The notes under the pieces were generated by a model. It was not told where the DNA came from. It ran no database searches and worked only from the letters and a program-made list of their open reading frames with translations. Positions 12,052-41,394 of a DNA stretch of 41,394 nt are shown here, one piece after another; positions within the stretch are counted from its first letter, which is position 1, and each line of letters opens with the position of its first letter. The translations under genes were made by a program, and so were the position numbers. The stretch is from a virus: positions 1 through 41,394 of IMG/VR virus record IMGVR_UViG_3300037054_000114, one strand, 5' to 3'.

Positions 12052-12180
12052 GGGATTAAATCCCTATTCCGAATCGGATGTGTACAAAACTAGGCTGTCG
12101 TTGACAATGTTCAATTAGCAATTTAGGGATTTGCACACCTACCGCGCGCCTCGGTGGCATTCAGGGGCAGGAGAAGGCAA

Positions 12181-12489: not shown

Positions 12490-13079
12490 TTCTTAGAGGC
12501 AACGCACCTTACGGCTACGGCTCCGGCTACGGCTCCGACTACGGCTACGGCTACGGCTCCGGCTACGGCGACGGCTACGGCTCCGGCGACGGCTACGGCT
12601 CCGGCGACGGCTACGGCGACGGCTCCGGCTACGGCTCCGGCTCCGGCTCCGGCTACGGCTCCGGCTCCGGCTACGGCGACGGCTACGGCTCCGACTACGG
12701 CTCCGGCTACGGCTCCGACTACGGCTCCGGAGAGTATTGGCTGTCCGCCGTCGACTATCTCGTGGTGAAGTGGCCCGAGAGTATCCAAAAGAGATTTGCC
12801 GAGATTCTCGCGCTTGGGGTAACCATCGCGTTCTGGCGATCAGACAAGAATGCTCTACCGGCAAATGGTGGCAAGAAGATCGAACCCGCAGCGCCGGGCG
12901 TTATTCACACCGCGCCCGGCCCGCTCAATCTCTGCCATGCCGGCACATTGCACGCCACGCTATTACCGCCGAAATGGAAAGGCGAGCGATGGTGGGTTGT
13001 GGCCTTGCACGGCGAGGTTATTGGCGACGAGGAAAAATATGGCTGCCTCAAACGCGAAATCATTGCCGAGGCTTTATGA
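12477..13079 (+). CDS. Gly/Tyr/Ser/Asp repeat protein with a globular C-terminal domain
   Basis: GTG at 12477 overlaps the upstream stop; an alternative ATG lies at 12438. About 72 aa of GYGSGYGDG-type repeats are followed by ...LCHAGTLHATLLPPKWKGERWWVVALHGEVIGDEEKYGCLKREII. Confidence 0.75.
   Translation: MDAIILRGNAPYGYGSGYGSDYGYGYGSGYGDGYGSGDGYGSGDGYGDGSGYGSGSGSGYGSGSGYGDGYGSDYGSGYGSDYGSGEYWLSAVDYLVVKWPESIQKRFAEILALGVTIAFWRSDKNALPANGGKKIEPAAPGVIHTAPGPLNLCHAGTLHATLLPPKWKGERWWVVALHGEVIGDEEKYGCLKREIIAEAL
12510..12730. repeat. Hexanucleotide-based tandem repeat (GGC followed by TAC, TCC or GAC)
   Basis: Read directly. It encodes the GY/GS/GD repeat and generates long spurious ORFs on the opposite strand (RSRSRS and AGAVAG frames). 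Confidence 0.9.
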
Positions 13080-22846: not shown

Positions 22847-22927
22847 TTATGAATAAATCCAGCCCATCGCTTTGGCAAAGGCCGCCCCCAACAGCACAAT
22901 TAATATGATGGTGGGGGCGTGTTTCAT
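22847..22927 (-). CDS. Candidate 26-aa membrane peptide (MKHAPTIILIVLLGAAFAKAMGWIYS)
   Basis: TGATG overlap with the outer-membrane-protein stop. The longer 73-aa track ORF overlaps that gene and looks spurious upstream of this ATG. Confidence 0.3.
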   Translation of the reverse strand: MKHAPTIILIVLLGAAFAKAMGWIYS

Positions 22928-23733
22928 CAGAACCCGCGCAGAATAGAAATGCCCGTCAGATACGTGGTGCCCATGAGGGCGCCAGGTCCGGTTGTCAGCG
23001 GCGTACCGTTGGCCGCGAACACATTGTTCAGGGTCAAGCCCTTGGTGGCCCAGCTTACCGACGCCCACAGATCGATCCCGCCGCCGTTGGTCTTGCCATC
23101 GGCGCCCATCGTAGGGAAAAGGAAGCCGGTCTTGATGCCAGGCGCGACGCCAACCGTAACGCCATGCGCGGCGCCGAAATTACCGTTCATGCCGAACTCG
23201 CGGATGATGGCGCCAAAGTATTGCTTCGGAACACCGACCTGGATGTTGGCCGGCAACTGCGGCGTGAAGGTGGGGAAGTTGATCGTACCCTGCGACTGGA
23301 TCGCCGACATGATGTAGCTCACGACATCGGCACCGACATCGAACTCCTGCGTGGCTGCCCAGCGGCTTGCAATGCCGGCACTGTTGCCGGGCACCGAGAT
23401 CCCGCCCTGGATGTTCTGGTAGTCGGCATCGGCCTGGATTCTCCACCAATTGCCGAAGCCGAGCAGTGCGGTCGAGCCGTGCTGATAGCCGAGCACAACA
23501 TCAACACCGCCGCCATCGGCCGTAAGATTGGAACTCACAAGGCTGGTAGCAAACAGGTTGCTGCCAGACACGCTGGACTGAGCAACGCCGGCATAGGTGC
23601 CGACGCCCCAATAAAAGCCGGACGCTGCAGCGGTGAACGGAACGGGCGGAAGGGCCTTGACCGCCATATCGGCGGCCATAGCCGGCATTGCCAGCGCCGT
23701 GAGCGCCGTAGTGAGCAAAAGAAACTTGCGCAT
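22927..23733 (-). CDS. Outer-membrane beta-barrel protein (Omp25/Omp31/porin-family-like), 268 aa with a signal peptide
   Basis: ATG at 23733 preceded by AGGAG. Signal peptide MRKFLLLTTALTALAMPAMA-AD. Gly/aromatic-rich alternating strands and a C-terminal ...ILRGF ending in Phe. Confidence 0.75.
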   Translation of the reverse strand: MRKFLLLTTALTALAMPAMAADMAVKALPPVPFTAAASGFYWGVGTYAGVAQSSVSGSNLFATSLVSSNLTADGGGVDVVLGYQHGSTALLGFGNWWRIQADADYQNIQGGISVPGNSAGIASRWAATQEFDVGADVVSYIMSAIQSQGTINFPTFTPQLPANIQVGVPKQYFGAIIREFGMNGNFGAAHGVTVGVAPGIKTGFLFPTMGADGKTNGGGIDLWASVSWATKGLTLNNVFAANGTPLTTGPGALMGTTYLTGISILRGF

Positions 23734-24639: not shown

Positions 24640-24723
24640 TCAGAATGAATCGGCAATTGCACAGAACAAACCGAACGCAACGGCGAGCAGCGGCCCTAGC
24701 ACAACTGCGGCGCGGATGGTCAT
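24640..24723 (-). CDS. Candidate 27-aa membrane peptide (MTIRAAVVLGPLLAVAFGLFCAIADSF)
   Basis: ATGA overlap with the endolysin stop. Third-position GC is compatible with coding. Confidence 0.3.
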   Translation of the reverse strand: MTIRAAVVLGPLLAVAFGLFCAIADSF

Positions 24724-25334
24724 GCCGGCCCCGGCTCAACTGGTTCAGCGGCTATTGCCCGCGTTACCGTGTCTGTAAATCCCTTCGCTATTTCCGGGTC
24801 CAATTCCTCTATTGCCCGCGCAATCTCAATACAGCCGAGCTGCCTGTCAAACGTGCCCCGCGACCATACACCGTCAGCCACGTACTTGCCGCCCTGATAA
24901 ATGGTGGTGCCGGACCATAGGTAACCGGATGGTCGGCCGTGATTGCGCGGGCCAAAGCCATTCCATTTTTCCCATTGCCAGCACGCCCATTCCCACGTCC
25001 ACTCGGCAACACCAACAATATGATCCAGAGTCAGGGCGTCTACAGCCCCTTTCTCCCACGAATCGAACGGGCCGCGCCCGTGCGGGACATGAACAGTTGG
25101 ATGACTAAGCGGGTCACCATTGCCAAGGTAGGTATTGAATGACGGTTGCTCCCGCTCGAATACCGGCATGACCCACAACGCGGGTACGCCCGACAATTGC
25201 TGCATGGTCAGGAATCGGGTGCGGTTGACCAGTAGTTGCTTGGCAACGGCTACGGCCTCGCTTGACCGGGTTGGTTGGGCCGCGGCCAAGTCTGCGGTGT
25301 ATTCGGATTTCAGTGCATCAAAACTGATGGTCAT
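24720..25334 (-). CDS. Endolysin candidate, COG5526-like lysozyme-family protein
   Basis: The pattern ...TYLGNGDPL...VPHGRGPF.SWEKGAVDAL...EKWNGFGPRNHGRPSGYLWSGT..Y.GGKYVADGVW matches my memory of alphaproteobacterial lysozyme-family proteins. Precedes the holin-like gene. Confidence 0.65.
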   Translation of the reverse strand: MTISFDALKSEYTADLAAAQPTRSSEAVAVAKQLLVNRTRFLTMQQLSGVPALWVMPVFEREQPSFNTYLGNGDPLSHPTVHVPHGRGPFDSWEKGAVDALTLDHIVGVAEWTWEWACWQWEKWNGFGPRNHGRPSGYLWSGTTIYQGGKYVADGVWSRGTFDRQLGCIEIARAIEELDPEIAKGFTDTVTRAIAAEPVEPGPA

Positions 25335-25349: not shown

Positions 25350-27785
25350 TTAGTTCGCACACGTCCAATACAGTACGTTGCTGCTCAGACTCGCATGGGT
25401 CACGACAAGTGTTGCGCCAAGCGTTGAGATTCCAACCGCTGCGCCAGTGCTCAGAGAGACATTGCATGAGTTGAACGTCGATCCGGTTGAGAACGTAATT
25501 GTACAGCCCGTCGCGGTCGTACCCTCTGTGACACGACCGGAGAAATCCGTTCCGGTTGCGGCGCTGGGCGACGTTCCGCAGGAGGAAATACCGGGTGTTC
25601 CGGGGTTACTTGCATAACCATGCGTAGCGACTGTGCTAGTGATAAGACTACCTGGAAGAACACTCGCCGAGGGATTATTAACAATAGAGTTTGTGCTGAC
25701 GGCAAAAGATGGTCCCGTTCCACTTCCACTGAACGTCGTACCGTTAGCTGTGATAACACCACCAGTCGATGCGGTAGTAAATGCTGTCGAAAATGCGGGA
25801 GTTCCACTTAGGGTGACCGTGCGACTTCCTGAACTAAAGATTTGTGCGGCTTGGATGGCCTGCCAATGTATGCTGGCACCTCCTGAAATTGTGTAGTTTG
25901 CTGTGATCGTAATAGTCGAACCAGCCGAAGCCCTAATCTGGACGCCCGCATTGGCTCCATACTCCATCGCCCCGGTGATGTTGAGAAACGAAGCGTTGAT
26001 GACGTTGATGCCATTACCGCCCGTTGTCGTAACGATCTTAAAGCCGCCCATCGTAAGCGCAGCACCATTGCTCATATCCAGAGCGTCGGCGCTGGTCGTT
26101 GAAATCAATACATTGGATGGCGTTGAAAGATCGCCTTGCAACGTGACGGTAGGATTGCCGTGAAACGGCCCATTCTGAGTGAGGTTGGCTGTATATGTGC
26201 CCGCCGCGACCGAGACCAAGATGGCCTGCTCGTTGCCATCCCAGGTATTGATGTAATTGAATGCGCCCTGTCTCGTAGCGCACGCGCCCGTAGTGGCGGC
26301 AAGGCAATCGTTTGCGTCGTTGCCGTTGGTGACATCGACAAAGACCGTTATCGCCGCGGTGAGTTTGTGCCGGTTAACATAGGATTGGATTGACCACGCG
26401 CCGTTAACAATTTGCACCGTGATCGTGTCAAGTGGCCAAAGGATATTGCTGGGGGCGGCGGCGACCGCACCGGGAAATCCTGAGAGAATTTGACCTCTTG
26501 TGCTGCTCGCGTTGTAGACTGCCAGAACGCAGTTTGTCACGAAACCAGCTACGGCCGGTAGTGTAATCGTCTTTTGCGCCCCGGTGGCATTGATCGTGTT
26601 GCCGCAATCGGTCGTAGGGATAGAGTAGTTGCCGGACTGCGTGTTGAGATTATTCTGCGGAACGCCAGACCCGGTGCAATTGCCCCAGATGTCTGCCGTC
26701 CCGCTGCCTCCCCCAGACTTGATGCACTGCCCTGCCGAGCCAAAACTGCTTGAAAGACCGACAGCGCCTGCCCCAGTAACTGCAAACCCGACTGAGTTAA
26801 GGAAGTTACCGCTGATCGTATAGGCAGAAAGATCAATACCTGTGGCGATAGTGTCCGTCGATCCGTCAGTGCAAATGACACAGCCGGTCGTGCCGAGCGG
26901 CGCAAATCCGTGGACGTTGTCCAGCAACAGAGCGGTTTTGAATTGTGCCGTGCCGGTGGCCGACCCTATTTCCACGGCCCCATAAAGGCTAGCGGGCGGG
27001 CTGCCGCTGCCACCGGCCACAATACTCCAACAAAAACCGTACCGCGCGCTTGCTCCACTCTCGATCTGACAATCCGCCTCACCAGCAGACATATCAAAAT
27101 AGTTGGTCGCGCCAGATAGTAAGTGGGCAAGCGGATTTATGCCGAAGCAATCGCCCGCTGCACCCGCGCCAGTGTTCGTTCCGCCCTCACTCGCGGAACT
27201 CAGACACCATGGGGTCATGGCTATATTATCTCTGACGGCAGACGGTGCTGATGCGATGGTGTGGGTTATTTCAGCAGACAGGGCGATCTTAGTCCCCTGA
27301 GAATTGGTCCCGCCGCTCGTCATCCCCACGCTAAACCCATAAGTATAAGGCGGATTGCCGGCGGTGACGTTGAGGCCGTCGAGAAGCGTACAAATGGAGT
27401 TGTAAGAATAACCCGGCTGCCCCTGGCCGGCACAGTTATTGGAAACCCCCGCAGTGCTGCTAGTGTTGTTGCCGGTCTGGTTGACTATCAATCCTTGAGT
27501 AATAGAGGCCGCAGGGGGATTGATTGTCAGTGGGCCGCCACTAAGCGTTTGTGCGCCAGTGATACCGTAGCCTGCAAGCGTTGTCGGTGTGCCGGTGATG
27601 TTCGCCCACGGGACAGTGCCACCAAAAGAACCATTACATTGAAAGCCAGCGTCTTTCAGTATCGTAACTGAATTGAAATACGCGCAATCCCCCGGCGTGA
27701 TCGGCCCAATGACCGTCACGGGCTGCGCATGTGCGGGCCATGCCGCCAGCACCAACAATATCAGCGCCAGATACAGCCGCTTCAT
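25350..27785 (-). CDS. Tail-fibre-like / beta-helix (pectin-lyase-fold-like) protein with a Sec signal peptide, 811 aa, about 20 Cys
   Basis: Signal peptide MKRLYLALILLVLAAWPAHA-QP. Fibre motif PWANITGTPTTLAGYGIT. Beta-helix cap-like NGNDANDCLAATTGACATRQGAF...VSVAAGTYTANL. My count gives 20 cysteines. Confidence 0.7.
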   Translation of the reverse strand: MKRLYLALILLVLAAWPAHAQPVTVIGPITPGDCAYFNSVTILKDAGFQCNGSFGGTVPWANITGTPTTLAGYGITGAQTLSGGPLTINPPAASITQGLIVNQTGNNTSSTAGVSNNCAGQGQPGYSYNSICTLLDGLNVTAGNPPYTYGFSVGMTSGGTNSQGTKIALSAEITHTIASAPSAVRDNIAMTPWCLSSASEGGTNTGAGAAGDCFGINPLAHLLSGATNYFDMSAGEADCQIESGASARYGFCWSIVAGGSGSPPASLYGAVEIGSATGTAQFKTALLLDNVHGFAPLGTTGCVICTDGSTDTIATGIDLSAYTISGNFLNSVGFAVTGAGAVGLSSSFGSAGQCIKSGGGSGTADIWGNCTGSGVPQNNLNTQSGNYSIPTTDCGNTINATGAQKTITLPAVAGFVTNCVLAVYNASSTRGQILSGFPGAVAAAPSNILWPLDTITVQIVNGAWSIQSYVNRHKLTAAITVFVDVTNGNDANDCLAATTGACATRQGAFNYINTWDGNEQAILVSVAAGTYTANLTQNGPFHGNPTVTLQGDLSTPSNVLISTTSADALDMSNGAALTMGGFKIVTTTGGNGINVINASFLNITGAMEYGANAGVQIRASAGSTITITANYTISGGASIHWQAIQAAQIFSSGSRTVTLSGTPAFSTAFTTASTGGVITANGTTFSGSGTGPSFAVSTNSIVNNPSASVLPGSLITSTVATHGYASNPGTPGISSCGTSPSAATGTDFSGRVTEGTTATGCTITFSTGSTFNSCNVSLSTGAAVGISTLGATLVVTHASLSSNVLYWTCAN

Positions 27786-27792
27786 TGCAATC

Positions 27793-28110
27793 TCACTGGG
27801 TAAATTCGAGAATCACGATGACGTTGGCCCCCGCCGAGGACGCAATGGCATTTGCCCCATTTGTCCAAGGTGGTGTGTTGGGCGGCCCAAACGTAACCCC
27901 TTGCAGGGGCTGCACCGCCACCGAACCAGCGCCATTCACAGCTGCATTAGTGCCGAGCGGCGCCACCCATAGCGTGACTGTGGCCGATGGATTGAAAAAG
28001 TACAGCCCGGCCCGCTGCAAATTGATGGCAGCCACATTTATGCTGGTATTGCTGACCGTGGTTGGTGTCAGCGCATTCGGACTTGGATAGGTGGTGCTGC
28101 CGGTGCCCAT
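27793..28110 (-). CDS. Small Ser/Thr/Ala/Asn-rich protein (105 aa), paralogue-like to 31148..31549; no signal peptide
   Basis: Abuts the upstream stop. The C-terminus ...TNGANAIASSAGANVIVILEFTQ resembles ...GNSWNAIAVSTTGSVSVFEW of the 133-aa protein. Confidence 0.6.
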   Translation of the reverse strand: MGTGSTTYPSPNALTPTTVSNTSINVAAINLQRAGLYFFNPSATVTLWVAPLGTNAAVNGAGSVAVQPLQGVTFGPPNTPPWTNGANAIASSAGANVIVILEFTQ

Positions 28111-28320
28111 TTATTTTTTCTCTTCCGGCTTGGCTGCCTTGGCTTCTTCAAGTTGCTTCTGCAAATCAGCTATCTGCTTCTGTTGCGCCTCGATAGTCTG
28201 CGCCCATTGATTGATGACGTTATCTATCTGAATTGCAGTTTGGCTTGGCGTTGGCTGTTGCGCGATTGCCGCCTCGACGCTGGCAAAAAACAACATTACA
28301 GTAAGGGTTTTTACGAGCAT
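28111..28320 (-). CDS. Small exported coiled-coil protein (69 aa)
   Basis: Signal peptide MLVKTLTVMLFFASVEAAIA-QQ, followed by Q/K/E-rich helical sequence. Confidence 0.55.
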   Translation of the reverse strand: MLVKTLTVMLFFASVEAAIAQQPTPSQTAIQIDNVINQWAQTIEAQQKQIADLQKQLEEAKAAKPEEKK

Positions 28321-29372
28321 GTTCCGCCCGTTCCCGTTGCTGCGGTGATGATGCCGTTCGTAATAGTGATGCTGGCAATGACAGTCAAAGCGCCGGAACA
28401 GGTCACGCCCTTTGTTCCGTTCGCGTAGTAAGCACCAGCGGCGTTAATTGTGCCTGTACCTTCGTTGCCGCCTGTGGGAGCCCCTATTTGCAAACTTGCA
28501 GAGAATGTCGTCGCCCCAGCGAATAGGTTTAAGCCAGAGCCGTTTTGTTGGATCGCATACGCCCCCGCGCTGGTCTGACTGTCGATAAGCAACCCAATCG
28601 GGGCGTTAGTAACCGTGTTGGTGCCGCTCGGCTTCTGATCCTGAATGTGGATGCCATAGGTATTCGTCCAGACCGACGATGCACCGCCCTTCGGCTGCTT
28701 GATCTGGATACCCTCTGCCGTGGTGATCGTGCCTCCGGTGTTGTTCGTGACCGCGACCTGGAGAGCCTGAGCGGCGGTGATCGTTCCGGTGGACTTGTTA
28801 AGAATATTACTAAAGGCGCCCTGCGCTACGGCTACTGTGCCTGTGCCATTGTGCAGTGCTGTAGAAGTGAAAGCAACGAGACCCGCCACGTTGGTCGAAA
28901 CCGTGCTTACAACGGCAGCGTCAGTTTCCAGCCCGACCATCGAGGCACTGGTATTTGTTCCGCTGTAGTTGAGGGCGAAGTATCCATTGAAGAACGGAAA
29001 CGTGGACGTGGTGACCGCATTTCTCTGAATTGCGAAAGTGATATTGCTGCTGCCGTAGGGCGTAAAAACTTCATCCGCACCGCTGACCAAGAACGGCCCG
29101 TTGCTGGAAAAGTTCGCAGTGCCCAGCGTCGCCCCGTTGAGCGCCGCCGATGTCGGCGTGATTGCGCCGAGGGTTAGGGTGATGGCCGGCGTCGTGGTGG
29201 GATTGGCCACGCTGCCAGAAATTCCGTTTGCGGTTGCGACGGAAACCGATGTGACGGTGCCAGAACCACCTCCACTAGATGCGCCGGGATTGTTAATCCC
29301 GCTGCCCATATCCTGCCCGAGTGCAGCACTAATCGCACCCAGCAACAGCAGCGTTGCAAGCCGGAATTTCAT
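28311..29372 (-). CDS. Tail-fibre-like protein with a Sec signal peptide (353 aa)
   Basis: The ATG at 29372 overlaps the upstream stop (ATGA). Signal peptide MKFRLATLLLLGAISAALG-QD. Fibre-type motif GTVTSVSVATANGISGSVANPTTTPAITLTLGAITPTS. Two C-terminal Cys. Confidence 0.7.
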   Translation of the reverse strand: MKFRLATLLLLGAISAALGQDMGSGINNPGASSGGGSGTVTSVSVATANGISGSVANPTTTPAITLTLGAITPTSAALNGATLGTANFSSNGPFLVSGADEVFTPYGSSNITFAIQRNAVTTSTFPFFNGYFALNYSGTNTSASMVGLETDAAVVSTVSTNVAGLVAFTSTALHNGTGTVAVAQGAFSNILNKSTGTITAAQALQVAVTNNTGGTITTAEGIQIKQPKGGASSVWTNTYGIHIQDQKPSGTNTVTNAPIGLLIDSQTSAGAYAIQQNGSGLNLFAGATTFSASLQIGAPTGGNEGTGTINAAGAYYANGTKGVTCSGALTVIASITITNGIITAATGTGGTCS

Positions 29373-29764
29373 TGTGTTTGCCATGCCGCGAAGGCGTGGG
29401 CGGTCGTGGCCCCAAGCACATATACTGCCTGTTTAGTCATATAGCTACCGGTGAATACCTGACTGCCGCACGCGGCCAATTCAAACGCGCCAAGGCTCGG
29501 CCCGGATGCCGATGTAGGTGCGGTGGTGGACGGCGGCAGGAAATACACGAACAGGCTTTCAGCCGTTACCGCCTGCGTTGTGGTGGAACAGTAGTTCTCA
29601 ATCCAAAGCGTAGTGCGGTTGCCGTTGGCCGCGAAAAGTACCTGCCATGTACCGCCCGCAGTAACGGACAGAACGGAAGCCGGTCCAATAGGCCCCACAG
29701 CCTGCGCCAAAACCGGCAACACAAAGCCGAGCAGAATGAAAGCCGCAATGCCAATCCTACGCAT
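29369..29764 (-). CDS. Small exported protein (131 aa), paralogue-like to 31148..31549
   Basis: ATG at 29764. Signal peptide MRRIGIAAFILLGFVLPVLAQA-VG. Two Cys. SVTAGGTWQVLFAANGNRTTLWIEN aligns with SVTSGTAVQIIGQNPGRKSIQICN. Confidence 0.6.
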   Translation of the reverse strand: MRRIGIAAFILLGFVLPVLAQAVGPIGPASVLSVTAGGTWQVLFAANGNRTTLWIENYCSTTTQAVTAESLFVYFLPPSTTAPTSASGPSLGAFELAACGSQVFTGSYMTKQAVYVLGATTAHAFAAWQTQ

Positions 29765-29766
29765 GG

Positions 29767-29988
29767 TCAATCCTTGATGAACCGCGAGGCCAACCCCGCT
29801 TTGCGACGCCGGGTGTCGTTGCTGACGCTGCCAATTGCTCCGGTGGTGGACGTTTCCCGCACCAGCGGACGCGGCAGCGCCGGCCCGAGCTTGGTATTTA
29901 GTTCCTTTTCAGCCCGGTAATGAAGCCGCGGGTCCATCGAGCCGCCCGGCATTGGCCGATCATTTAGATTGTAGCGTGCCATCTTCAT
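29767..29988 (-). CDS. Hypothetical basic protein (up to 73 aa; the start is uncertain)
   Basis: High third-position GC. The ATG at 29988 overlaps the stop of the Wzy_C ORF. An alternative ATG at 29952 lies after the stop of the alternative frame (29960). Confidence 0.5.
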   Translation of the reverse strand: MKMARYNLNDRPMPGGSMDPRLHYRAEKELNTKLGPALPRPLVRETSTTGAIGSVSNDTRRRKAGLASRFIKD

Positions 29989-31136
29989 TCCCCGCTATTG
30001 AGCGTTTGTAGGCGTATTCCCGAAACCGATAATCCAATGGCATGACCCGAACCGCTGTCATGAGCGACCACATAGCCTTGTCGTAGTTCGGCTCGCGCGA
30101 TCCCCGGGTTGCCAAAATTTCGGCGGTGAGTAGCGAGCCTGCGTACCACAGCCCTATCCCGAACAGCATAGCCGGCAGCCAGGGCCGCCAATGCCATTGT
30201 CGCCGGTAGGTGAGACGGGAAAGCAAAACAAGCCTCCACAGCGAATACAACCATGACCAACCGGGCCGAATTGAGCGGCCCCCGCAGCTCCCACATGAAC
30301 AGCGCCGCTAACCCTAGCCCAATCATGCCCAGTTCGTACACTAGCTCTAGTAGGTCATTGTGGGCGTGCATCACATGGCCGTCTAACTGCGGGGCGTGGT
30401 GCATGAAGCCGTAGGAGCCAATACCGGACCCCAGAAAGCCCAAGTCGTCCACTGATTCCTGCCAAATGTCGAACCGTTCCACAGTCGAGGCCGCACTATG
30501 GGTAGTCATCCCGTACCCAAACAGCACCATATCGGCCACCAGCAGCCCGCCAATGAGCCAGGATGGGCGCTTCCATAGAAGCGCCCCCAAACCAACCCCC
30601 AGCGCCAGCAGCGCCCCACGGGCGTCCGCAAGGGCAATGCAGGGGGCTACCAGGGCCGCCAACCACCATACCCGCTCGGCAATCAGCCAAATCAGGACCA
30701 GGGCCGCCGCTTCGGCCATGAAATTCTTGTTCAGGAATAGCCCGGATGGGATGTTTATGGTCGGCCAGTCGATCCAGCCGGCAAGCTGACCAACCGCCAC
30801 GACGGATGATATGGCCAACCCAACACCGCCGCCAATAAAAAGGGGCCGCAAAGACTGATTTTGCGACCCAAGGATGAAGCAGACTGCCGGGAGGCAAACG
30901 ATCTGCCACAACCCGTTTAGGCTAAAGAGGGGATACGGTGACCATGCCACCGACAGGACCGCCCAACCAAGCAGGGCGGCCCCAGCCATATGAGCGCCGG
31001 TCCATTGGATAGGTTTGTTCCGGTAGAGCAATAGGCCGCAGGAAACGATAGACAGCGCCGCCCATTTCGGGGTCATGGCCGGCGACCACAGCCACGGCCA
31101 GTAAGCCGCCGTTACGAGCAACCCCAGGGCGAACAT
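29985..31136 (-). CDS. O-antigen polymerase/ligase family (Wzy_C domain) polytopic membrane protein; the 3' end may continue in the +1 frame (ORF 29960..30250)
   Basis: About 10 hydrophobic segments and the signature ...ERFDIWQESVDDLGFLGSGIGSYGF....HVMHAHNDLLELVYELGMIGLGL. The last 58 or so codons look non-coding. Confidence 0.75.
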   Translation of the reverse strand: MFALGLLVTAAYWPWLWSPAMTPKWAALSIVSCGLLLYRNKPIQWTGAHMAGAALLGWAVLSVAWSPYPLFSLNGLWQIVCLPAVCFILGSQNQSLRPLFIGGGVGLAISSVVAVGQLAGWIDWPTINIPSGLFLNKNFMAEAAALVLIWLIAERVWWLAALVAPCIALADARGALLALGVGLGALLWKRPSWLIGGLLVADMVLFGYGMTTHSAASTVERFDIWQESVDDLGFLGSGIGSYGFMHHAPQLDGHVMHAHNDLLELVYELGMIGLGLAALFMWELRGPLNSARLVMVVFAVEACFAFPSHLPATMALAALAAGYAVRDRAVVRRLATHRRNFGNPGIARAELRQGYVVAHDSGSGHAIGLSVSGIRLQTLNSGE

Positions 31137-31147
31137 TCATTTACCTA

Positions 31148-31549
31148 CTACCATTCAAACACACTCACCGAACCAGTCGTGGACACCGCAATCGCATTCC
31201 ATGAATTGCCCACGGTGCTACCATTGGCGCCGCCTGCGAAAGTTGGCGCGGTAAAGCAGGTGGTCGTTCCCGATGACAACGCCGGCAGCTCATAGGCGCT
31301 GACGGTCGGCGACAGCGGCCCCGGCCAAATCCACTGCACTCCGGTCCCGATATTGCAAATCTGGATCGACTTGCGGCCGGGGTTTTGACCGATGATTTGC
31401 ACGGCCGTTCCACTGGTAACCGATGTGGTGGTTACGTTGGGCGTCAAATTGGTGGTCTGCGCCGTGGCGGTAAAGATGCCGGCAGCCATCCCAGCCGCGA
31501 GCAGCACGCCCGCGATGATGCCAAAGCCGAATTTCAGATATTGCCTCAT
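31148..31549 (-). CDS. Small exported or membrane-anchored protein (133 aa), founding member of the three paralogue-like genes
   Basis: N-terminus MRQYLKFGFGIIAGVLLAAGMAAGIFTATA-QT. Two Cys. Ser/Thr/Gly-rich beta-like sequence. Confidence 0.6.
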   Translation of the reverse strand: MRQYLKFGFGIIAGVLLAAGMAAGIFTATAQTTNLTPNVTTTSVTSGTAVQIIGQNPGRKSIQICNIGTGVQWIWPGPLSPTVSAYELPALSSGTTTCFTAPTFAGGANGSTVGNSWNAIAVSTTGSVSVFEW

Positions 31550-31552: not shown

Positions 31553-31819
31553 TCACCCTTTCCGGTGGTACAAGGCCGCGAGAGGGCCTACGAAAACGAT
31601 TGAGAACGCCACGGCTGCATAAAGCCGCGCCTGTGTCGGATCGAAGATCGTGTAACCCCAAATCACCGCCCCGGTCAGGACGGCAATCATGAGCAGCGAC
31701 CGGGTGGCACATATTTTGGCCACCGTGCGCGCTGTTTCGATGAAGTTGGGGTTGATGTCGGATTCAGTTGGCCCCGGCGGCTGCACATCGGCAAACAGTT
31801 GACGGACTTCGGTGGTCAT
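31553..31819 (-). CDS. Two-TM membrane protein (88 aa)
   Basis: TM segments LLMIAVLTGAVIWGYTIF and LYAAVAFSIVFVGPLAALY. 4-nt overlap upstream. Confidence 0.6.
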   Translation of the reverse strand: MTTEVRQLFADVQPPGPTESDINPNFIETARTVAKICATRSLLMIAVLTGAVIWGYTIFDPTQARLYAAVAFSIVFVGPLAALYHRKG

Positions 31820-32022: not shown

Positions 32023-33366
32023 CTAGTTTCCGGGCTGGGCAAGGGCGCTTGCCGCACCGGGCACAAGGGCGGGGGTGGCCGCGGTCAGCGCACGCGATGC
32101 CATGCCCGGCGGTTGCTTTTCAATCTCTGCCGTGGCCGCGCGCCCAAGCGGCGATTCGCTACGGATGATGTTTTCCAGTTCGGTAATCTGCCGCCGGGTC
32201 AGGTAGGTACCAAGATATTTCGCAATGGTAGCCGGGATAGCCACGGCAGCCGCAGCCCCAGGACCTCCACCCAAGTAAGCCATGCCAGATGCAATACCCG
32301 ATACGGGACCAGATGGAGCAAACTTGCCAGCAAACCGGGCACCATTGGTCAGCCAAGTACCTTCGACAATATCTTCCATCTGTTTTTTTGCTTCGGGAGA
32401 ATACCCCCGTGATTTATTATCGTTATCGAGAATTTCACGAATGCGCTGCCGCATGGCGTTCTGCGTATTAGCGCCGACACCAGACGTAGCCGCACGATGG
32501 CTACCAATTTCCATGGCAGACTGCACTTGATCCAATTCGGCATAGGATCGCCAGCTAGAACGCGCATGTTCGAGCATAGCCTGAGTAAATTTGGCATCAC
32601 CGCTGACTATCTCGCCGGGTGGCAAATTCTCAATGTAGCTGTCAATAGCATCGCGAACGTGTTGCGCGGCTGCATAATCGGAACCCAAGTCGGGTGTGAT
32701 TTCACCAAGCCGTTGACGCACACCAAGAATGCCGGAAATATCGCCACCACTCTTTTGCAATTGTTCAAGCCCCTTGAATGTTCGCGGGGCCACGGTGTCC
32801 GTAATTAGCCGCTGATCCAATCCGGCCCGTGTTGCCGAGACAAGACCATTAAGAGACCCCTCGGACGCAATCAGTCGAGCATCCTCAACGGCCTTATATG
32901 ATGCCTGGGCCGACTTTTTGATCGCATCAGTAGCGGGCAATGCTGCCCGAATCTGTTTTGCCTGTGAGGCCGCATTAACAACACCGCCGGCAATTTCTGC
33001 CGCCTCTGGTGCCGCTGTCATTCCTAATGACGCGGCCGGCAACACCTTGGCTGGATCTTGCACGTCTTGTGAGTATTTAGCCGGGTCTGTCAGGGCCTCT
33101 TTTGTGAGCGTGGCGCCAGCCGTTAATCCCTCATCTACCCCACTAATAACACCCCGCACCGCGCGCTCAGGCCATGTCTGGTAACGCTCGCCGGTCAGAC
33201 CCAGCAGTTTATCAGCAACGCCACGTTCTTGTGGCTGTTCGGGCTGTGACTGCTGCGGCAGCGACTTGGCAATTTCATCAACAGTCGAGTTTTGCTGTTC
33301 GGGCGCGAGTTTCATAAACTCATCGCCGACCGTAACCTGTTGTCCGTTGACGGTCAGCTTGGGCAT
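32023..33366 (-). CDS. Internal virion / ejection-protein-like helical protein (447 aa)
   Basis: The ATG at 33366 overlaps the upstream stop (TAATG). Ala/Gln-rich helical sequence. The position corresponds to podovirus core proteins. Confidence 0.5.
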   Translation of the reverse strand: MPKLTVNGQQVTVGDEFMKLAPEQQNSTVDEIAKSLPQQSQPEQPQERGVADKLLGLTGERYQTWPERAVRGVISGVDEGLTAGATLTKEALTDPAKYSQDVQDPAKVLPAASLGMTAAPEAAEIAGGVVNAASQAKQIRAALPATDAIKKSAQASYKAVEDARLIASEGSLNGLVSATRAGLDQRLITDTVAPRTFKGLEQLQKSGGDISGILGVRQRLGEITPDLGSDYAAAQHVRDAIDSYIENLPPGEIVSGDAKFTQAMLEHARSSWRSYAELDQVQSAMEIGSHRAATSGVGANTQNAMRQRIREILDNDNKSRGYSPEAKKQMEDIVEGTWLTNGARFAGKFAPSGPVSGIASGMAYLGGGPGAAAAVAIPATIAKYLGTYLTRRQITELENIIRSESPLGRAATAEIEKQPPGMASRALTAATPALVPGAASALAQPGN

Positions 33367-34868
33367 TAGGGCTGTACACTCCAAGTGACGCCGGTTGATG
33401 TAGTGTTTTGACCCCCGGCAGCGCCCTCTGACGCTTGCCCGAAATAGTTTTCAAGAAGAGCCTTCTTTGCCATCCCCGGCGCCTTTTCAACCGCGTCAAC
33501 TTCCTTACGGAGCTGCGCAATGCCCGCACGATAGGCTTGCGGAGAATCGGCGGTATCAAGAACGGTATGCGCCCGCGACTGAGCGGCGACCGTGTTGGCG
33601 CCGTTGCGCGACATGGTAGCACCGTAGGCCGTAACTGCCGACTCGTTGGCGTCGATGAATTGACGGTAGGCTGGATCGCTCATCAACTGTTTACCGCCCA
33701 AAATAATCTTGTTCATCGGCACAAATTTGCCGCGCGGCACGGCATCCGATGCCTGCACAGCCAACTGGAAGGTCTGATCGGCCTCAGCCACAGACACCTC
33801 GATTTGCCCCGCCCGCGTACCCGCCGCGCGGGCGGCAGACTGACCACCCTGAAAGTTTGCAGCCCCGGCAGCCAACTCATCAGGTGACGGCGGACGGCCA
33901 TGCTGGCGCTGGAAATCCTGAGTAAATGATTGCGCCCACATTGCTGGCAATGAACGTGGCGTGCCCGATACCTTGGGCAACGGCTGCGTATCCTTAGCTG
34001 GGTCATTCAGTTTCAAGCCAAGAGATTCAGCCGCGGCCTTTATTTTCAGCCACTCGGTCGGCTTGTCTTGCATTATACGCTGCGCAAGTTCTGGATTGCC
34101 GTTCAACTCATCAACCTTTGATGATACTTCGGCAGCCTGCTCTTTGCGCACCCCGCTTAACTGCCCAAACGCGCCCTGTAGCCGCTGATTGGCTTGGCCC
34201 ATCTTATCAACCGCCTGAGCCACGCCATTGAAATTGCCGGACTTGGCAAGGTCGGTAATGACGCTGTTCTGGAATTGGCTGCCCGCAATGGTCAGCCCCT
34301 GCGTCATTTCTTCAATATTGGATTTCCGGTTATTGAGGATTTCGTGGTACTTCTCCAATTCCATATTGTTATTCTCAATAGTTTTTTTGGTGTTCTGCTC
34401 CCATTGCTTTGACGCTTCCTCGTAAGCCTGCAAATTGCCGGCCTGCCAGCCCTTGAGCGCACCGGCAAACGCATTGAGCGACGCAGTGCCACCCTGTCGC
34501 GTCCAGCGACCCGCAACCGCGCCCAAGACCGCAGCCGCACTAGCAAATTCCATAGAGTATTTGTGATAGTCCTGCGGGTTTGGCGCATCCTTGATTTTCT
34601 CGAATTGGGCCGTTCGCTCCTGCGGGTTGCTCAGTGTTTTGTCGAGCTTGTCCAGAAACGGCTTTTGCGCCGTGGCAATACCCGCCTCGTACTTGCCGAT
34701 TTCAGTCTGGTCCGGTTGGGCAAGTGCCGACTGCGGCTTGAGTGCGGACGCGCCCGCACTGGACGGATCGGCCTGTGCCTCTGCCGGCGTATCCGCGGGC
34801 GGATTGGTATTGCGGCCGCTTGTCTTGTCGCGGGTTTCGCCAGTGCTATCAACGTATGTTTCTGTCAT
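33366..34868 (-). CDS. Internal virion / ejection-protein-like helical protein (500 aa)
   Basis: Long helical Q/A/K/E-rich sequence. 1-nt overlap with the upstream stop. Confidence 0.5.
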   Translation of the reverse strand: MTETYVDSTGETRDKTSGRNTNPPADTPAEAQADPSSAGASALKPQSALAQPDQTEIGKYEAGIATAQKPFLDKLDKTLSNPQERTAQFEKIKDAPNPQDYHKYSMEFASAAAVLGAVAGRWTRQGGTASLNAFAGALKGWQAGNLQAYEEASKQWEQNTKKTIENNNMELEKYHEILNNRKSNIEEMTQGLTIAGSQFQNSVITDLAKSGNFNGVAQAVDKMGQANQRLQGAFGQLSGVRKEQAAEVSSKVDELNGNPELAQRIMQDKPTEWLKIKAAAESLGLKLNDPAKDTQPLPKVSGTPRSLPAMWAQSFTQDFQRQHGRPPSPDELAAGAANFQGGQSAARAAGTRAGQIEVSVAEADQTFQLAVQASDAVPRGKFVPMNKIILGGKQLMSDPAYRQFIDANESAVTAYGATMSRNGANTVAAQSRAHTVLDTADSPQAYRAGIAQLRKEVDAVEKAPGMAKKALLENYFGQASEGAAGGQNTTSTGVTWSVQP

Positions 34869-36277: not shown

Positions 36278-38776
36278 CTATGCGCCCTTCCACAATGATT
36301 TCTCTTGATACTCGCAAAGTAGGTTCGTCATAGTCATTCCGGCAAATGTTCCGCTGACGGTTAGCCCAAGATACACACCCGAACCACCAATGGCATTGTT
36401 GCTGGCGTCGTTGGAACCACCCGTCACATGGAAGCCGGCTGTTATCGCAAGATTGTAATTATTGCTCGCGTTTTCGGTATCGACCGACATTGTGACGTTG
36501 TTGGAACCAAACGCTTGATTATAGGAAAAGCCGGCTCGGATAACCGCCTTGCCCTGCACGGCATTGCCATGGTGCGTCAATGCCGTCTGGATTTTCCAAT
36601 TGATGGCTGCGGTACGCGCCACCAGTTGCGTCACATCCGGCCCGGAGCTGCCATAGAGCGAGTTTTGTCCCGTGGCGAGCGATGCCGACGTGGCAATGGC
36701 AGTCAGTGAGCTGCCCTGTTGCAACACCCACCACCGCTTGCCGTCGAATGTCAGCATGATCGAGCGCGTGGTAGATAGCGGGTCTTTGTACCGGACCAGA
36801 AACACCGCGTTGTGAATGGCGTTGATGTCGGCCAAGGCCCCTTGCGGCACCTGGGTAAAGTCAACCAGCTTCCAAATGCCGTCCATATCGCCGGACAGTT
36901 TTTGCACGCTACTGCCGAACACACCGTAAATGCCGTTGGTGTTGGCAAACATGAACACACGATTGTAGCTGATGCAGGATTTTGGGTAGATTGTGCCCTG
37001 GTCAGATGACAGCGTGAGGATCGTGAACAGCGTTACGTCGCCGGCCTGATTGAGCGAGATATTGCCAATCTGCTTCACCGACTGGTCGCCCATGATGAAC
37101 AGATAATTATTGTACGCGCGTAGTGCGGTTATGGCGTGGATCAAATCGGCATCGGAAATGATAAGCGTACCCGAGGCATCGGCCGCGTCAAAATCATCAT
37201 AGCCGACGTTGCCATAGCTTGCACCCGTGCCGGTCCAAGTCAGCAAGTTGCCGCCGCCTAGCCACACCCGGCCCTGGAACACGGCCAGCGTTGTAAAGGC
37301 ATCGCCGACGATGGTGCTGTTGATGAACGGCCAGACGTGGGCAATGGCGGTTGCGCCCGTGCCTGAACCGATAAGAACCGATGGCGTCAGGTCGTAACCC
37401 GAGCCTTGCGAAGCGATGGTGGCAAGAATTGTCGGATTTGCCGAAAATGTCGCACCAACAACAGCTATGGTTGGCGCGGTAACGTAGTTCGATCCGCCGG
37501 CCGTTATGAAAACGGAAATAACACCAACAGCAGTGGCGCCTGTGTTGTCGGTGTAGTTGCCGATTGTCGCGGTCCCGGTCGCACCCGAGCCGCCACCGCC
37601 CGTGAAACTCAGCGCAAACGTACCGGGAGTGGATGAAATACCCTGAAAGGCAATAGCCAAGGCAGTCACGGCAGAGGCATTGAGCGCAATAGTATTGACC
37701 ACGCCGCCAGATATTGTCGTGGTGGCCACTGCACCCGAGCCGTTGCCGTCGCTGGGGGTGATGATGGCCGCGGGCGGGGCCGAATACAGCGTGCCTCCCG
37801 TGTCGAGAACAATCGTCGCGACACTTTCAGTTCCAAGTGTTGCTCCAATAACGGGGGCCGGCCCGCCTGTAGTAACGAGAAAGAAAGTCGGCGGCGACGT
37901 GTAGCCCGACCCTGGCGATGTAAGAACAACTGCCGAAATGTATCGGCCCGAGCCACCAAGCGACGAGACAACACAATACCCTCGCGCGCCCGTGCCACCA
38001 CCGCCTGTGGAAGTCAAAGTATGAATGCCAACCCCGGCCGGGCCGGTGAAAGTACCCGGATTGATAATTTGCAGCGAAGCGACAGGCGAACCCGTCATGG
38101 TCACATGCGCAGTAGCACCCGAGCCGGGGCTGGTGCCAATCACCACAGTCAGTACATCGGTGACCTGATAGCCGTGGCCGGGATTGTCCAAGATGATTTG
38201 AATGATGGAGCCGTTCTGCACCACCGCATGAGCCGTGGCGCCCGAGCCGCTGCCGCCCGTGATGGTGATTGAAGGCGCGGCACCATAGCCGCTGCCACCG
38301 TTCGTGACAGTGATGTTTGGCGATACCCCGCCCTGACCCACAAAAATCGTGCCGTCGAATGTCGAATAACCGGCCTTGGAATCGGCAATCAGCAACCGCG
38401 ATGCCTGCCATGTCGTTACGTCAGGCTGTGCACTAAATGTGCCGTCCGGGGCAAACTGCCCTACCGCACCCGTTGCGATATTGAAAAGATACCCAGCGCC
38501 AACCGTCGTGAACGCCACGAAATAATCCACGCCGAGTAGTGCGGCGTAAAACATCGTTGAAATGTTTTCGCCAATTGTCGCGAGCGCAGCCGCGGCCGGT
38601 GCCGGAACAGCCGTGAGATTATTGCCGGCAATCGGTTGCAGGTTTTCCAGCCACGCAAGTTCCTTTTCCGACAACGATTGCCGGATGGATTGCGTGTTCA
38701 TCTTCTCGAAGTTCTCGTAAACGATGAACTTCGTCTGATCGCGTTGATCGCCGCCTGGCTGCGGAAGGCCGGCCAT
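36278..38776 (-). CDS. Large tail protein (832 aa), nozzle/tail-tubular-B-like position, with an inserted array of G-x-G-Y repeat modules
   Basis: Second gene after the Gp49-like protein, and the largest virion-module ORF. Residues about 150-470 hold 5-6 modules such as VTNGGSGYGAAPSITITGGSGSGATAHAV. The functional name rests on position only. Confidence 0.5.
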   Translation of the reverse strand: MAGLPQPGGDQRDQTKFIVYENFEKMNTQSIRQSLSEKELAWLENLQPIAGNNLTAVPAPAAAALATIGENISTMFYAALLGVDYFVAFTTVGAGYLFNIATGAVGQFAPDGTFSAQPDVTTWQASRLLIADSKAGYSTFDGTIFVGQGGVSPNITVTNGGSGYGAAPSITITGGSGSGATAHAVVQNGSIIQIILDNPGHGYQVTDVLTVVIGTSPGSGATAHVTMTGSPVASLQIINPGTFTGPAGVGIHTLTSTGGGGTGARGYCVVSSLGGSGRYISAVVLTSPGSGYTSPPTFFLVTTGGPAPVIGATLGTESVATIVLDTGGTLYSAPPAAIITPSDGNGSGAVATTTISGGVVNTIALNASAVTALAIAFQGISSTPGTFALSFTGGGGSGATGTATIGNYTDNTGATAVGVISVFITAGGSNYVTAPTIAVVGATFSANPTILATIASQGSGYDLTPSVLIGSGTGATAIAHVWPFINSTIVGDAFTTLAVFQGRVWLGGGNLLTWTGTGASYGNVGYDDFDAADASGTLIISDADLIHAITALRAYNNYLFIMGDQSVKQIGNISLNQAGDVTLFTILTLSSDQGTIYPKSCISYNRVFMFANTNGIYGVFGSSVQKLSGDMDGIWKLVDFTQVPQGALADINAIHNAVFLVRYKDPLSTTRSIMLTFDGKRWWVLQQGSSLTAIATSASLATGQNSLYGSSGPDVTQLVARTAAINWKIQTALTHHGNAVQGKAVIRAGFSYNQAFGSNNVTMSVDTENASNNYNLAITAGFHVTGGSNDASNNAIGGSGVYLGLTVSGTFAGMTMTNLLCEYQEKSLWKGA

Positions 38777-40863: not shown

Positions 40864-41394
40864 TTATTGTACGCGCGGCTGGATAAGACAGGTCGAATTG
40901 GCGTTGGAAGTAACGGCCACAAGAGCCGTTGACGCCACACCACCCGCACCACCCGTAAATGTCACGGCCGGGGCCGAGGTATAACCACCGCCAGACTGAT
41001 ACATATGGATGCCAAGGAGCGTGCCCGAACCAGTGAGCGCAATCGACGTGAGCTGTGCGCCCGTGGCCGACGTGTTCTGATTGCCCGACAAGGCATTACC
41101 CGGATAGACAAGACCCGGAGCCGGAACAGCACCAGCGGCGACGCCGCCTGACGGGCCGCCCTGGTAGATCGGCGTCTGCGGCACGATCCAGAAATTCGGG
41201 GTGGCCGCATAGCCAGCACCGGCATTAACCATCGTGACCGACGCAATGCCCGACGAACCGGCTGCGGTCATCACGGCAATGGCCGTGGCCTGAATACCGC
41301 CCGGCGGGGGCGGATCAATGACCAGAACCGGGGGCACAAGGAAGCCCGAACCAGCCTGCGTCACGGTCGGGGCAGCTACGCTGCCACCAATGAT
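40864..41394 (-). CDS. C-terminal part of the wrap-around structural protein (same gene as 1..498)
   Basis: The frame is open from 41394 down to the stop at 40864. The track's start at 41364 is only an in-frame GTG. Contains the modules VNAGAGYAATPNFWIVP and QSGGGYTSAPAVTFTGGAGG. Confidence 0.8.
   Translation of the reverse strand: MIGGSVAAPTVTQAGSGFLVPPVLVIDPPPPGGIQATAIAVMTAAGSSGIASVTMVNAGAGYAATPNFWIVPQTPIYQGGPSGGVAAGAVPAPGLVYPGNALSGNQNTSATGAQLTSIALTGSGTLLGIHMYQSGGGYTSAPAVTFTGGAGGVASTALVAVTSNANSTCLIQPRVQ
41275..41394. repeat. Direct terminal repeat, right copy (identical to 1..120)
   Basis: Base-by-base identity with 1..120. Confidence 0.95.

Follow-up and report, generated by a model that had tools for sequence, protein, structure and literature searches.

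The locus described here raises the question of how a tailed phage would equip its particles with fibres if its only fibre-like proteins carry signals for export from the cytoplasm. Tailed-phage particles are taken to assemble wholly in the cytoplasm, and among the textbook phages only the filamentous ones are known to send virion proteins through Sec. The sequence in question, IMG/VR record IMGVR_UViG_3300037054_000114 (41,394 nucleotides (nt), the whole of which we call the window), is a metagenome contig whose nt 1-120 are identical to nt 41275-41394, so that the assembly is circular and complete, and it represents a podovirus-like genome of approximately 41.27 kb. A first-pass annotation of this DNA had pointed to eight open reading frames (ORFs) at 25350-31549, in the place where tail fibres would be expected, five of whose products were said to start with Sec signal peptides. 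All eight ORFs are present, on the minus strand, and the complete genome holds its only fibre- or spike-like genes in this cluster. These tail-fibre or tailspike proteins with a predicted export signal and with export-linked disulfides present a feature that is real, conserved, and more than chance would provide; searches of the open-access literature found no report of Sec-exported tail fibres or tailspikes in tailed phages.

Signal peptides were called by our own rule-based scan of the n-, h-, and c-regions, which required positive charge in the n-region, about 7-15 hydrophobic residues without charge in the h-region, and small side chains at -3 and -1. The five N-termini quoted earlier are indeed there, and the scan flags five of the eight products of the cluster but only one of 25 products of the remaining late genes of the window (Fisher p = 0.0013). 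The preprotein of 811 amino acids (aa) encoded at 25350-27785 (minus strand), a tailspike/fibre homologue with 20 cysteines, starts with a predicted Sec (signal peptidase I) signal peptide, MKRLYLALILLVLAAWPAHA (27726-27785, minus strand), of n/h/c architecture, with cleavage expected before Q21. Comparison with related phages finds a signal-peptide-like start in 42 of the 47 database homologues of this protein, 37 of these with Gln at +1, and in one of the remaining five, P0042, the start is mis-called and an internal signal peptide is present. While the signal peptide sequences drift among relatives (MKRLYLALILLVLAAWPAHA, MKRLSLALLLLVLAVWPVCA, MQRMALIFAVWIFGVGAALA, MKWLASVLFALFIAGAVQA, and others), with the physicochemical character kept, the mature start is conserved across 16 lineage members, as Q-x-VTVIGP.TPG(D/N)C..F.S.T..KD.G..C, and such drift in front of a start that stays is the behaviour of real signal peptides. 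The lineage can be recognized by a gene for a 105-aa protein that carries no signal peptide (27793-28110, minus strand), located directly upstream of the signal-peptide fibre gene; no other gene of the module is so well conserved, and this one serves for that reason as a lineage marker. In 16 of 16 contigs bearing the marker, a count that draws on L001, L010, L011, L013, L014, and ten IMG/VR contigs, the 105-aa gene is succeeded by an ORF whose product begins with a signal peptide and VTVIGP.TPG.C, the exception being a degraded locus in contig L009. By comparison, only 16 of 147 generic proteins with the same fibre repeat (~11%) have a signal-peptide-like start. The lipobox L-[AS]-[GA]-C is absent at all five N-termini of the window, and the Tat consensus S/T-R-R-x-F-L-K is not matched, the start MRRIGI having the RR pair without it; several homologues show A-Q-C or A-Q-G-C, neither of which is a lipobox. 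We also considered an isoform of the 811-aa protein made from an internal start and lacking the signal peptide, and discarded it, as neither an in-frame ATG nor a GTG preceded by a Shine-Dalgarno sequence is found near the cleavage site.

The cysteines of these proteins follow the same division. The even numbers reported by the first-pass annotation are exactly 2, 2, 2, 0, and 20, for the 353-, 131-, 133-, 69-, and 811-aa products, respectively, and the count in the mature part is even in 38 of the 42 signal-peptide-bearing homologues of the 811-aa protein (binomial p = 3e-8, uncorrected for relatedness). Across seven loci, even counts are found in 18 of 20 exported versus 19 of 53 non-exported proteins (Fisher p = 3e-5), and the signal-peptide-bearing fibres of these phages possess up to 26 cysteines. 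In an alignment of close homologues of the 811-aa protein, the pairs 394/419, 494/502, and 774/809 are invariant, the pairs 354/370 and 736/761 are each kept or lost as a unit, and in L020 both C34 and C50 are lost. The homologues without signal peptides (P0019, P0037, P0045, P0047, and the tail fibre of MW202785) possess one to five cysteines and show a residue other than Cys at every aligned cysteine position, while the homologues with signal peptides keep C302-x-x-C305. By these comparisons the cysteines appear to track export, and they are confined here to the proteins predicted to carry signal peptides. The idea of a Sec-exported, disulfide-paired set of proteins is strongly supported by the conservation of signal peptide character, by the co-varying cysteine pairs, and by the restriction of these cysteines to the signal-peptide-bearing homologues. 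Judged from the sequences, export and disulfide bonding are well supported, and it is highly probable that Sec translocates the proteins, which are cleaved and acquire their disulfide bonds in the periplasm.

As to the nature of the proteins behind these signals, the 811-aa protein is composed of the signal peptide, an N-terminal module with C34-C50, a tail-fibre repeat, a variable middle part, a beta-sandwich, a right-handed beta-helix, and a C-terminal sandwich. The module that follows the signal peptide is conserved over ~30 residues, contains one cysteine pair, and resembles fibre shaft repeats. The fibre motifs noted earlier in the two large proteins, the repeat PWANITGTPTTLAGYGIT at residues 59-76 of the 811-aa protein (27558-27611, minus strand) and the module GTVTSV...PAITLTLG at residues 38-69 of the 353-aa protein (GSGTVTSVSV..PAITLTLG; 29166-29261, minus strand), both recur in hundreds of fibre-like proteins. 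Residues 21-110 of the 811-aa protein, used as a query, retrieved 662 proteins, with matches centred on PWANITGTPTTLAGYGIT, in up to 17 copies per protein, and one of the proteins with this repeat matches the Pfam family PTR (PF12789). Among the 120 sharers of the 353-aa protein module that were listed, a signal peptide is present at the start of about a fifth to a quarter, the others being ordinary fibres without one. In the AlphaFold2 model of the 811-aa protein (mean predicted local distance difference test score, pLDDT, of 67), residues ~380-720 form a beta-sandwich and a right-handed parallel beta-helix (25626-26648, minus strand), at values mostly of 80-97, and hold the cysteine pairs 394/419 and 494/502. 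The top Foldseek matches in the PDB are phage tailspikes (6c72, 4ru5) and pectin methylesterases, the phage proteins matched being Fri1 gp49, phi297 gp61, and fibres of Agrobacterium phage 7-7-1. By tblastn, residues 454-713 match annotated tail fibres, those of MW202785 (E 4e-16) and Acidovorax phage AP1 (4e-10), the beta-sandwich/helix domain being common to the 811-aa protein and to the MW202785 fibre, which has no signal peptide. The homologues of the 811-aa protein agree over their N-terminal ~35-60 residues and have swapped C-termini, a modular pattern typical of virion receptor-binding proteins. Some of the relatives with signal peptides carry a Peptidase_S74 domain, an intramolecular chaperone typical of fibres, and a canonical tailspike N-terminal motif is found after a full signal peptide in P0003 and after an N-terminal hydrophobic segment in a 667-aa protein of L005. 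Overall, the predicted fold identifies the 811-aa protein as a beta-helix tailspike-type protein that would bind or degrade a polysaccharide. It resembles the tailspikes and fibres of known podoviruses (P22 gp9, Fri1 gp49, phi297 gp61, those of the Acidovorax phages and of MW202785) in possessing a small beta-sandwich and a right-handed beta-helix, and these are likewise encoded by the last structural gene before lysis and likewise combine a conserved N-terminus with swapped C-terminal specificity domains. However, the known proteins have no signal peptide, are poor in cysteine, and fold in the cytoplasm, whereas those of the window have Sec-type signal peptides and co-varying cysteine pairs.

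The genomic context is that of a virion module. The late genes of the window run on the minus strand in a podovirus-type layout, and apart from the cluster genes no ORF of at least 300 aa in the complete genome is fibre-like; a crude gene caller based on third-position GC content (GC3) overlooked Ser/Thr/Gly-rich fibre genes, and a manual gene list was used. The genes of the cluster are tightly spaced, as had been noted, with gaps of -10 to +15 nt, an ATGA overlap at three junctions and TAAATG at one, and promoter-like or terminator-like sites across the cluster are in no excess over the shuffled expectation. In addition to the eight ORFs, a ninth small conserved ORF (29960-30169, minus strand) overlaps the 3' end of a Wzy_C gene in another frame. 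The view of the region as one functional cluster did not hold, as the Wzy_C gene is separable and absent from most relatives, and the exported genes in the middle vary between contigs. Instead, three layers can be told apart: a lineage-conserved frame, variable exported proteins, and polysaccharide-modifying inserts. The frame consists of a 64-aa and an 88-aa gene upstream, and of the 105-aa gene and the signal-peptide fibre gene downstream, and as judged from these sequences its conserved core is the 105-aa protein, without a signal peptide, and the signal-peptide fibre after it. The variable layer comprises one to five further exported proteins, here those of 131, 353, and 69 aa, and elsewhere proteins of 144-1,155 aa. 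Recombination joints often lie just past a shared signal peptide; one example is MRRIGI..., which heads the 131-aa protein of the window and, in L001, a protein of 323 aa, the signal peptide being common and the bodies different.

The arrangement is not limited to one lineage. With the degraded L009 locus as the exception, all the cluster contexts examined are phage late operons, with the same placement in at least five different phage lineages, and beyond the lineage of the window at least four further phage types have homologues with signal peptides in their virion modules. In L002/L003 the homologue sits between the capsid and SU10-type adaptor genes, in L004 and L015 it is the last gene before a GH108 endolysin, in L005 it comes after a 2,224-aa internal protein, and L016, of an unrelated lineage, also possesses one. 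Placement in the late operon before lysis is also seen in L001, L004, L005, L010, L011, L013, L014, and L015. The lysis cassette that the first-pass annotation had placed beside the cluster is presumed from synteny with relatives, which at this position have Glyco_hydro_108, a weak Phage_holin_10 match, or spanin-like genes, but the presumed lysis genes of the window itself gave no match in Pfam or PHROG. The probable first lysis gene, directly 3' of the 811-aa gene, encodes a 204-aa protein (24720-25334, minus strand) for which family searches of Pfam, PHROG, and PDB sequences were empty; in L001 its homologue is followed by a holin-like protein.

How, then, would such proteins reach a particle? 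Receptor-binding proteins are normally the last parts put on the tailed-phage particle and assemble independently; tailspikes and fibres are an independent assembly branch and can be added last even in vitro, as with T4 fibres and P22 tailspikes. The earlier annotation had listed three readings without a choice, and the one now favoured has the fibres folding in the periplasm and being added to particles at lysis. According to this reading, the 811-aa and 353-aa proteins and several small companions would be made with cleavable Sec signal peptides, would cross the inner membrane and be cleaved, mostly leaving an N-terminal Gln, and would be stabilized by local disulfides formed in the oxidizing periplasm. 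The fibres would then dock on the cytoplasm-assembled particles once holin and endolysin merge the compartments at lysis, and the docking may use the conserved N-terminal module and the 105-aa jelly-roll protein, which lacks a signal peptide. We tentatively regard the region as the host-recognition module of the uncultured podovirus-like phage whose complete genome this is, at somewhat below an even chance, and we would put in the same range the proposition that the exported fibres are the receptor-binding proteins of the phage and join its particles at lysis. The latter is suggested by the complete genome without another fibre, by the fibre and the 105-aa protein being the conserved pair of the lineage, and by the fibres being an independent, late-added branch of assembly. 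Still more tentatively, whole lineages of tailed phages of diderm hosts may practice a two-compartment virion assembly, sending their spikes or fibres via Sec and using the 105-aa protein as the docking site.

The third layer of the locus is represented in the window by the gene for the Wzy_C membrane protein (383 aa; 29985-31136, minus strand). Its identification in the first-pass annotation is borne out by a PF04932 match just over the cutoff (E 6.7e-8, 32.9 bits versus a cutoff of 31.7, residues 159-276), and with at least six hydrophobic segments the product is polytopic and O-antigen polymerase/ligase-like. The gene is present in approximately four of 16 relatives, and homologues are found only in L001, L022, L024, and, independently, the unrelated L016. 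L019 retains both flanking genes without Wzy_C, and for this reason the insert comprises only Wzy_C and the overlapping ORF; a single cassette of the 133-aa gene, Wzy_C, and the 73-aa gene was considered and ruled out on the same ground. The overlapping ORF (69 aa, MLFGIGLWYAGSLLTAEIL...; 29960-30169, minus strand) has a hydrophobic N-terminus, and its sequence, MLFGIGLWYAGSLLTAEILATRGSREPNYDKAMW...RVMPLDYRFRE..., is conserved by tblastn in L001, L022, and the divergent L024 (45% identity). As the Wzy frame has stops in L024, the final ~50 residues annotated for Wzy_C are unlikely to be conserved as coding sequence. In temperate, seroconverting podoviruses (Salmonella epsilon15, Pseudomonas D3, Shigella Sf6, P22), genes for a wzy-type polymerase, small inhibitor peptides, and acyltransferases adjoin the tailspike gene. 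Similar to these, Wzy_C, with the small overlapping ORF as a candidate partner, adjoins a fibre gene here, as does, in L011, which has no Wzy_C, an Acyl_transf_3 gene (5715-6638, on the opposite strand), O-antigen acetyltransferase-like, which fits interchangeable surface-polysaccharide conversion inserts at this site. The difference is that neither an integrase nor another sign of lysogeny is found here and that the insert lies amid exported fibre-like genes. The overlapping ORF might encode a partner or inhibitor peptide of the polymerase, and together with Wzy_C it would make up a separable surface-polysaccharide (O-antigen) conversion insert beside a receptor-binding gene.

A number of points weigh against the proposal that the exported fibres are added to virions at lysis. 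We know of no tailed phage that exports a virion protein through Sec, and fibres in the periplasm would have no contact with cytoplasm-assembled particles before lysis. No recognizable particle-binding domain is present behind the signal peptide of the 811-aa protein, the N-terminal half of its model is of low confidence, and its Foldseek E-values are weak, ~1e-3. The Ig-like (immunoglobulin-like) repeats of an 832-aa protein encoded elsewhere in the genome are possibly an auxiliary adhesion surface and might bind the host, and L002 and L004 also encode canonical fibres without signal peptides, so that the exported proteins could be accessory there. The window and all its relatives are known from metagenomes only, and neither a cultured relative nor a relative among the GTDB representatives was found in the searches made: megablast with half of the genome returned no cultured relative, tblastn with the portal protein returned only two metagenomic 'Manatee Spring' genomes (~31% identity), none of the 353-, 105-, and 133-aa proteins had a tblastn match among 50,697 phage records, and the 811-aa family scan of the GTDB representative genomes likewise found none. 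With no cultured relative found, there is no virion proteomics to borrow. The signal peptides were called by a rule rather than by SignalP or another trained predictor. Finally, the virion of Agrobacterium phage Milano possesses many disulfide bonds, linking sheath and baseplate proteins (PMC10811340), and as virion disulfides can thus form without export, cysteine pairs alone are no proof of periplasmic folding. The last two points could be taken to mean that the N-termini are not export signals, the proteins remaining in the cytoplasm with an N-terminal helix for trimerization or tail docking, and the cysteines being oxidized after release as in Milano, which would keep to the conventional route of assembly. 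We regard this as very improbable, given the full n/h/c architecture, with A-x-A and then Q in 37 of 42 homologues, and given that free drift before a conserved mature start is expected of a signal peptide and not of a binding interface. In addition, the same type of N-terminus is found on unrelated small companions and on an outer-membrane-protein-like protein, and the homologous domains of fibres without signal peptides have none of these cysteines. The likeness to Milano is that of an alphaproteobacterial phage gaining extracellular stability from many disulfides (PMC10811340), with the alphaproteobacterial host only probable here, but the linked sheath and baseplate of Milano are assumed to be assembled in the cytoplasm (the paper is silent on cytoplasm and export), whereas here the cysteines are confined to the proteins with signal peptides.

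If export is accepted, the proteins could still act without ever joining a virion. As free periplasmic or released enzymes, they could destroy, mask, or mimic the receptor, stripping or blocking the surface polysaccharide of the producing cell late in infection, which would keep progeny from being caught on debris and would bar superinfection, together with the Wzy_C or acyltransferase inserts. We consider this rather unlikely, though the evidence for export and disulfides serves it equally well, and it is free of the topological problem of joining a virion. The beta-helix fold is common to secreted glycan-active enzymes (pectin methylesterases, RbmB), the neighbours are polysaccharide-modifying (Wzy_C in the window, L001, L022, L024, and L016; Acyl_transf_3 in L011), and the phages L002 and L004 have canonical fibres without signal peptides in addition. 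One precedent is WceF of Pantoea stewartii, an exported tailspike-like glycanase of a cellular exopolysaccharide cluster (PMC7949094). WceF and the Vibrio RbmB, both glycanases of cellular exopolysaccharide clusters, are, as the proteins discussed here would be, trimeric or beta-helix tailspike-like proteins with an export signal, acting on surface polysaccharide outside the cytoplasm, but WceF has a Tat signal, is exported folded, and belongs to a bacterial polysaccharide-synthesis cluster, and a disulfide-rich pattern is not reported for it. As free enzymes, moreover, these proteins would leave a complete genome without any fibre or spike, their universal conservation in the lineage as a pair of signal-peptide fibre and 105-aa partner would be unexpected, and the combination of a conserved N-module and exchanged C-termini is classic for virion receptor-binding proteins. 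For a receptor-matching decoy, a paralogue with the same specificity domain and without a signal peptide would be expected and is absent, and the PADLOC models of known defence or exclusion families gave no meaningful match to ten proteins of the region. Another view would have the N-module anchor the exported proteins on the infected or lysogenic cell, or on vesicles, altering adhesion or the surface. Here the model would be the MAT fibres of Bdellovibrio bacteriovorus, which have a signal peptide, a conserved N-module, a phage-fibre-like shaft, and swappable tips, some with S74 (PMC10769870), the same architecture of signal peptide, N-module, and variable tip as in the fibres of the window. 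The ~11% of generic repeat proteins with a signal peptide look like cellular surface proteins, and an outer-membrane-protein-like gene lies nearby in three lineages. However, MAT genes are chromosomal and their products are shown on the predator's own surface, their N-module is of ~130 residues versus ~35-60 here, and the window genes belong to a phage late virion operon, as do all the contexts, none of them cellular, with the degraded L009 locus as the sole exception. No route across the outer membrane is encoded, and with neither an integrase nor an independent promoter, expression in a lysogen is unsupported, so that we regard a cell-surface role as improbable. A further idea, compatible with any of the above, is that Wzy_C is an O-oligosaccharyltransferase of the PglL/PilO type that glycosylates the co-encoded exported proteins, rich in Ser/Thr/Ala/Pro. 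The Wzy_C family (PF04932) includes protein O-oligosaccharyltransferases, and Wzy_C is found amid such exported proteins in two unrelated lineages, those of the window and of L016. This too we judge to be quite improbable, and somewhat more so than a surface role, as most relatives lack Wzy_C yet keep the exported fibres, as no match to PglL-specific families is present, and as a phage wzy gene beside a tailspike gene has a simpler precedent in seroconversion; sequence alone cannot tell a polymerase, a ligase, and an O-oligosaccharyltransferase apart, and searches of NCBIfam, PHROG, and PDB sequences with Wzy_C revealed nothing that separates the three.

The observations have consequences under each of these readings. 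In a widespread uncultured podovirus lineage, the only candidates for receptor-binding proteins are equipped with Sec signal peptides and export-linked cysteine pairs, as are homologues in at least four other lineages. If the proteins are parts of the virion, then assembly would have to be completed at or after lysis, which bears on burst kinetics, on selection for lysis timing, and on the notion of a 'complete' intracellular particle. If they are not, then these would be phages without recognizable fibres that invest heavily in exported fibre-like enzymes, which would amount to a new kind of late-infection envelope remodelling. For annotation pipelines, a signal peptide is no reason to discard a fibre candidate, and the link between cysteines and signal peptides presents a simple genomic marker for finding more cases. 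In practice, such receptor-binding proteins or depolymerases may depend for their folding on DsbA and on expression in the periplasm.

As to the companion proteins, Pfam, PHROGs, NCBIfam, and PADLOC revealed almost nothing for the products of the cluster, and PDB sequence searches were empty. Homologues of the 105-aa protein form 174 clusters, and among the 120 listed the identity is 71-100% and none possesses a signal peptide; in the related contigs they are of 102-106 aa. The AlphaFold2 model (pLDDT 87) is a sandwich of eight strands, a jelly-roll, and Foldseek against BFVD matches many small uncharacterized phage proteins at a TM-score of ~0.7. Assigning a function to this protein by fold was abandoned, as a jelly-roll matches too many things. 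The 69-aa exported protein (28111-28320, minus strand) starts with MLVKTLTVMLFFASVEAAIA followed by QQ at the predicted cleavage site, continues with a coiled-coil-like segment, has no cysteines, and shows only weak matches to coiled-coil families; L016 possesses an analogous gene, for an 83-aa coiled-coil protein with a signal peptide, after its signal-peptide fibre gene. The 353-aa protein (28311-29372, minus strand) is a short fibre-like protein with the predicted signal peptide MKFRLATLLLLGAISAALG followed by QD, a Gly-rich linker, and two C-terminal cysteines; its ORF would encode 357 aa from an upstream ATG, and a 98%-identical database protein is of 353 aa and starts with MKFRL. The 131-aa protein (29369-29764, minus strand) has the predicted signal peptide MRRIGIAAFILLGFVLPVLA followed by QA, two cysteines, and homologues in L019 and L022. 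The 73-aa protein (29767-29988, minus strand) is basic and hydrophilic, is conserved in L001, L019, and L022, and returned nothing in family scans. The 133-aa protein (31148-31549, minus strand), with homologues in L001 and L019, has two cysteines and a Gly/Ala-rich hydrophobic N-terminus (...FTATA, with predicted cleavage before QT), whose h-region is unusually long and could be a signal anchor. Beyond this segment, the protein is distantly paralogous to the 105-aa jelly-roll protein (27% identity over 102 aa, 28% in the alignment).

Elsewhere in the window, the late genes follow the order typical of podoviruses, again on the minus strand. A 629-aa ORF without a family match occupies the terminase position, the portal gene is recognized by a weak match (E 3e-6), and the major capsid protein is encoded at 506-1516 (phrog_9953), followed by small head-tail genes and by a 324-aa protein with Ig-like repeats, read as the adaptor. 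The 832-aa protein (36278-38776), also with Ig-like repeats, is read as the nozzle, and its C-terminal region has a beta-propeller-like PF13360 match below the cutoff; between the N-terminal domain and this region it contains a long run of Gly-rich Ig-like repeats (GGSGY..P.V.I.GG.GSGA.A). Three Gly/Ala/Gln-rich proteins without cysteines, of 220, 500, and 453 aa, look like internal or ejection proteins. The last of them (32023-33384, minus strand) matches phrog_21712, 'major head protein' (E 1e-23), a label that is probably misleading in view of its position and composition and of the real capsid gene at 506-1516. The cluster is preceded by the conserved 64-aa gene and by the gene for the 88-aa protein with two hydrophobic segments (31553-31819, minus strand), which forms the upstream border of the module and is present in all the lineage members examined. 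No integrase-sized ORF and no integrase match were found in the complete genome, the only regulator being of the HTH_3 family.

Just past the presumed lysis genes, an exported outer-membrane-protein-like gene is present (22927-23733, minus strand). Such beta-barrel-like exported proteins recur in three phage lineages, those of the window, of L001 (12787-13485), and of L005 (15234-16046). In the window the protein has the predicted signal peptide MRKFLLLTTALTALAMPAMA followed by ADM.VKA.P and the C-terminus ...ILRGF, and is negative in the Pfam scan. In the genome scan only its N-terminus matches proteins of uncultured Alphaproteobacteria (metagenome-assembled genomes), suggesting that the host is probably a soil alphaproteobacterium; the assignment is weak, as it comes only from the N-terminal matches of this gene.

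Some of the related contigs present further features near the module. In L009 (5400-12169), a homologue of the 105-aa gene and fibre-like ORFs are found beside bacterial genes (GcpE, DeoR, an ABC transporter) at the end of a 78-kb contig, and the ORF after the 105-aa gene has no signal peptide; this degraded locus may have been left by a prophage, may be a domesticated fragment, or may result from chimeric assembly. In L001 (9627-10004), a cysteine-containing ORF of 125 aa, by its sequence a putative homing endonuclease of the HNH/AP2 type, lies between the 105-aa gene and the signal-peptide fibre gene. L014 possesses anti-defence genes of the Acb2/Tad1-hairpin and Tad2-like types (11880-12622), directly downstream of the signal-peptide fibre gene and of a gene for a 410-aa membrane protein. 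At positions 1-1661, upstream of the internal-protein genes, L014 encodes a further fibre-like protein with a hydrophobic, signal-peptide-like start (...GVICVICGAIYALA followed by QSS) and a Peptidase_S74 domain, suggesting that the signal-peptide fibres are not confined to one slot in the genome.

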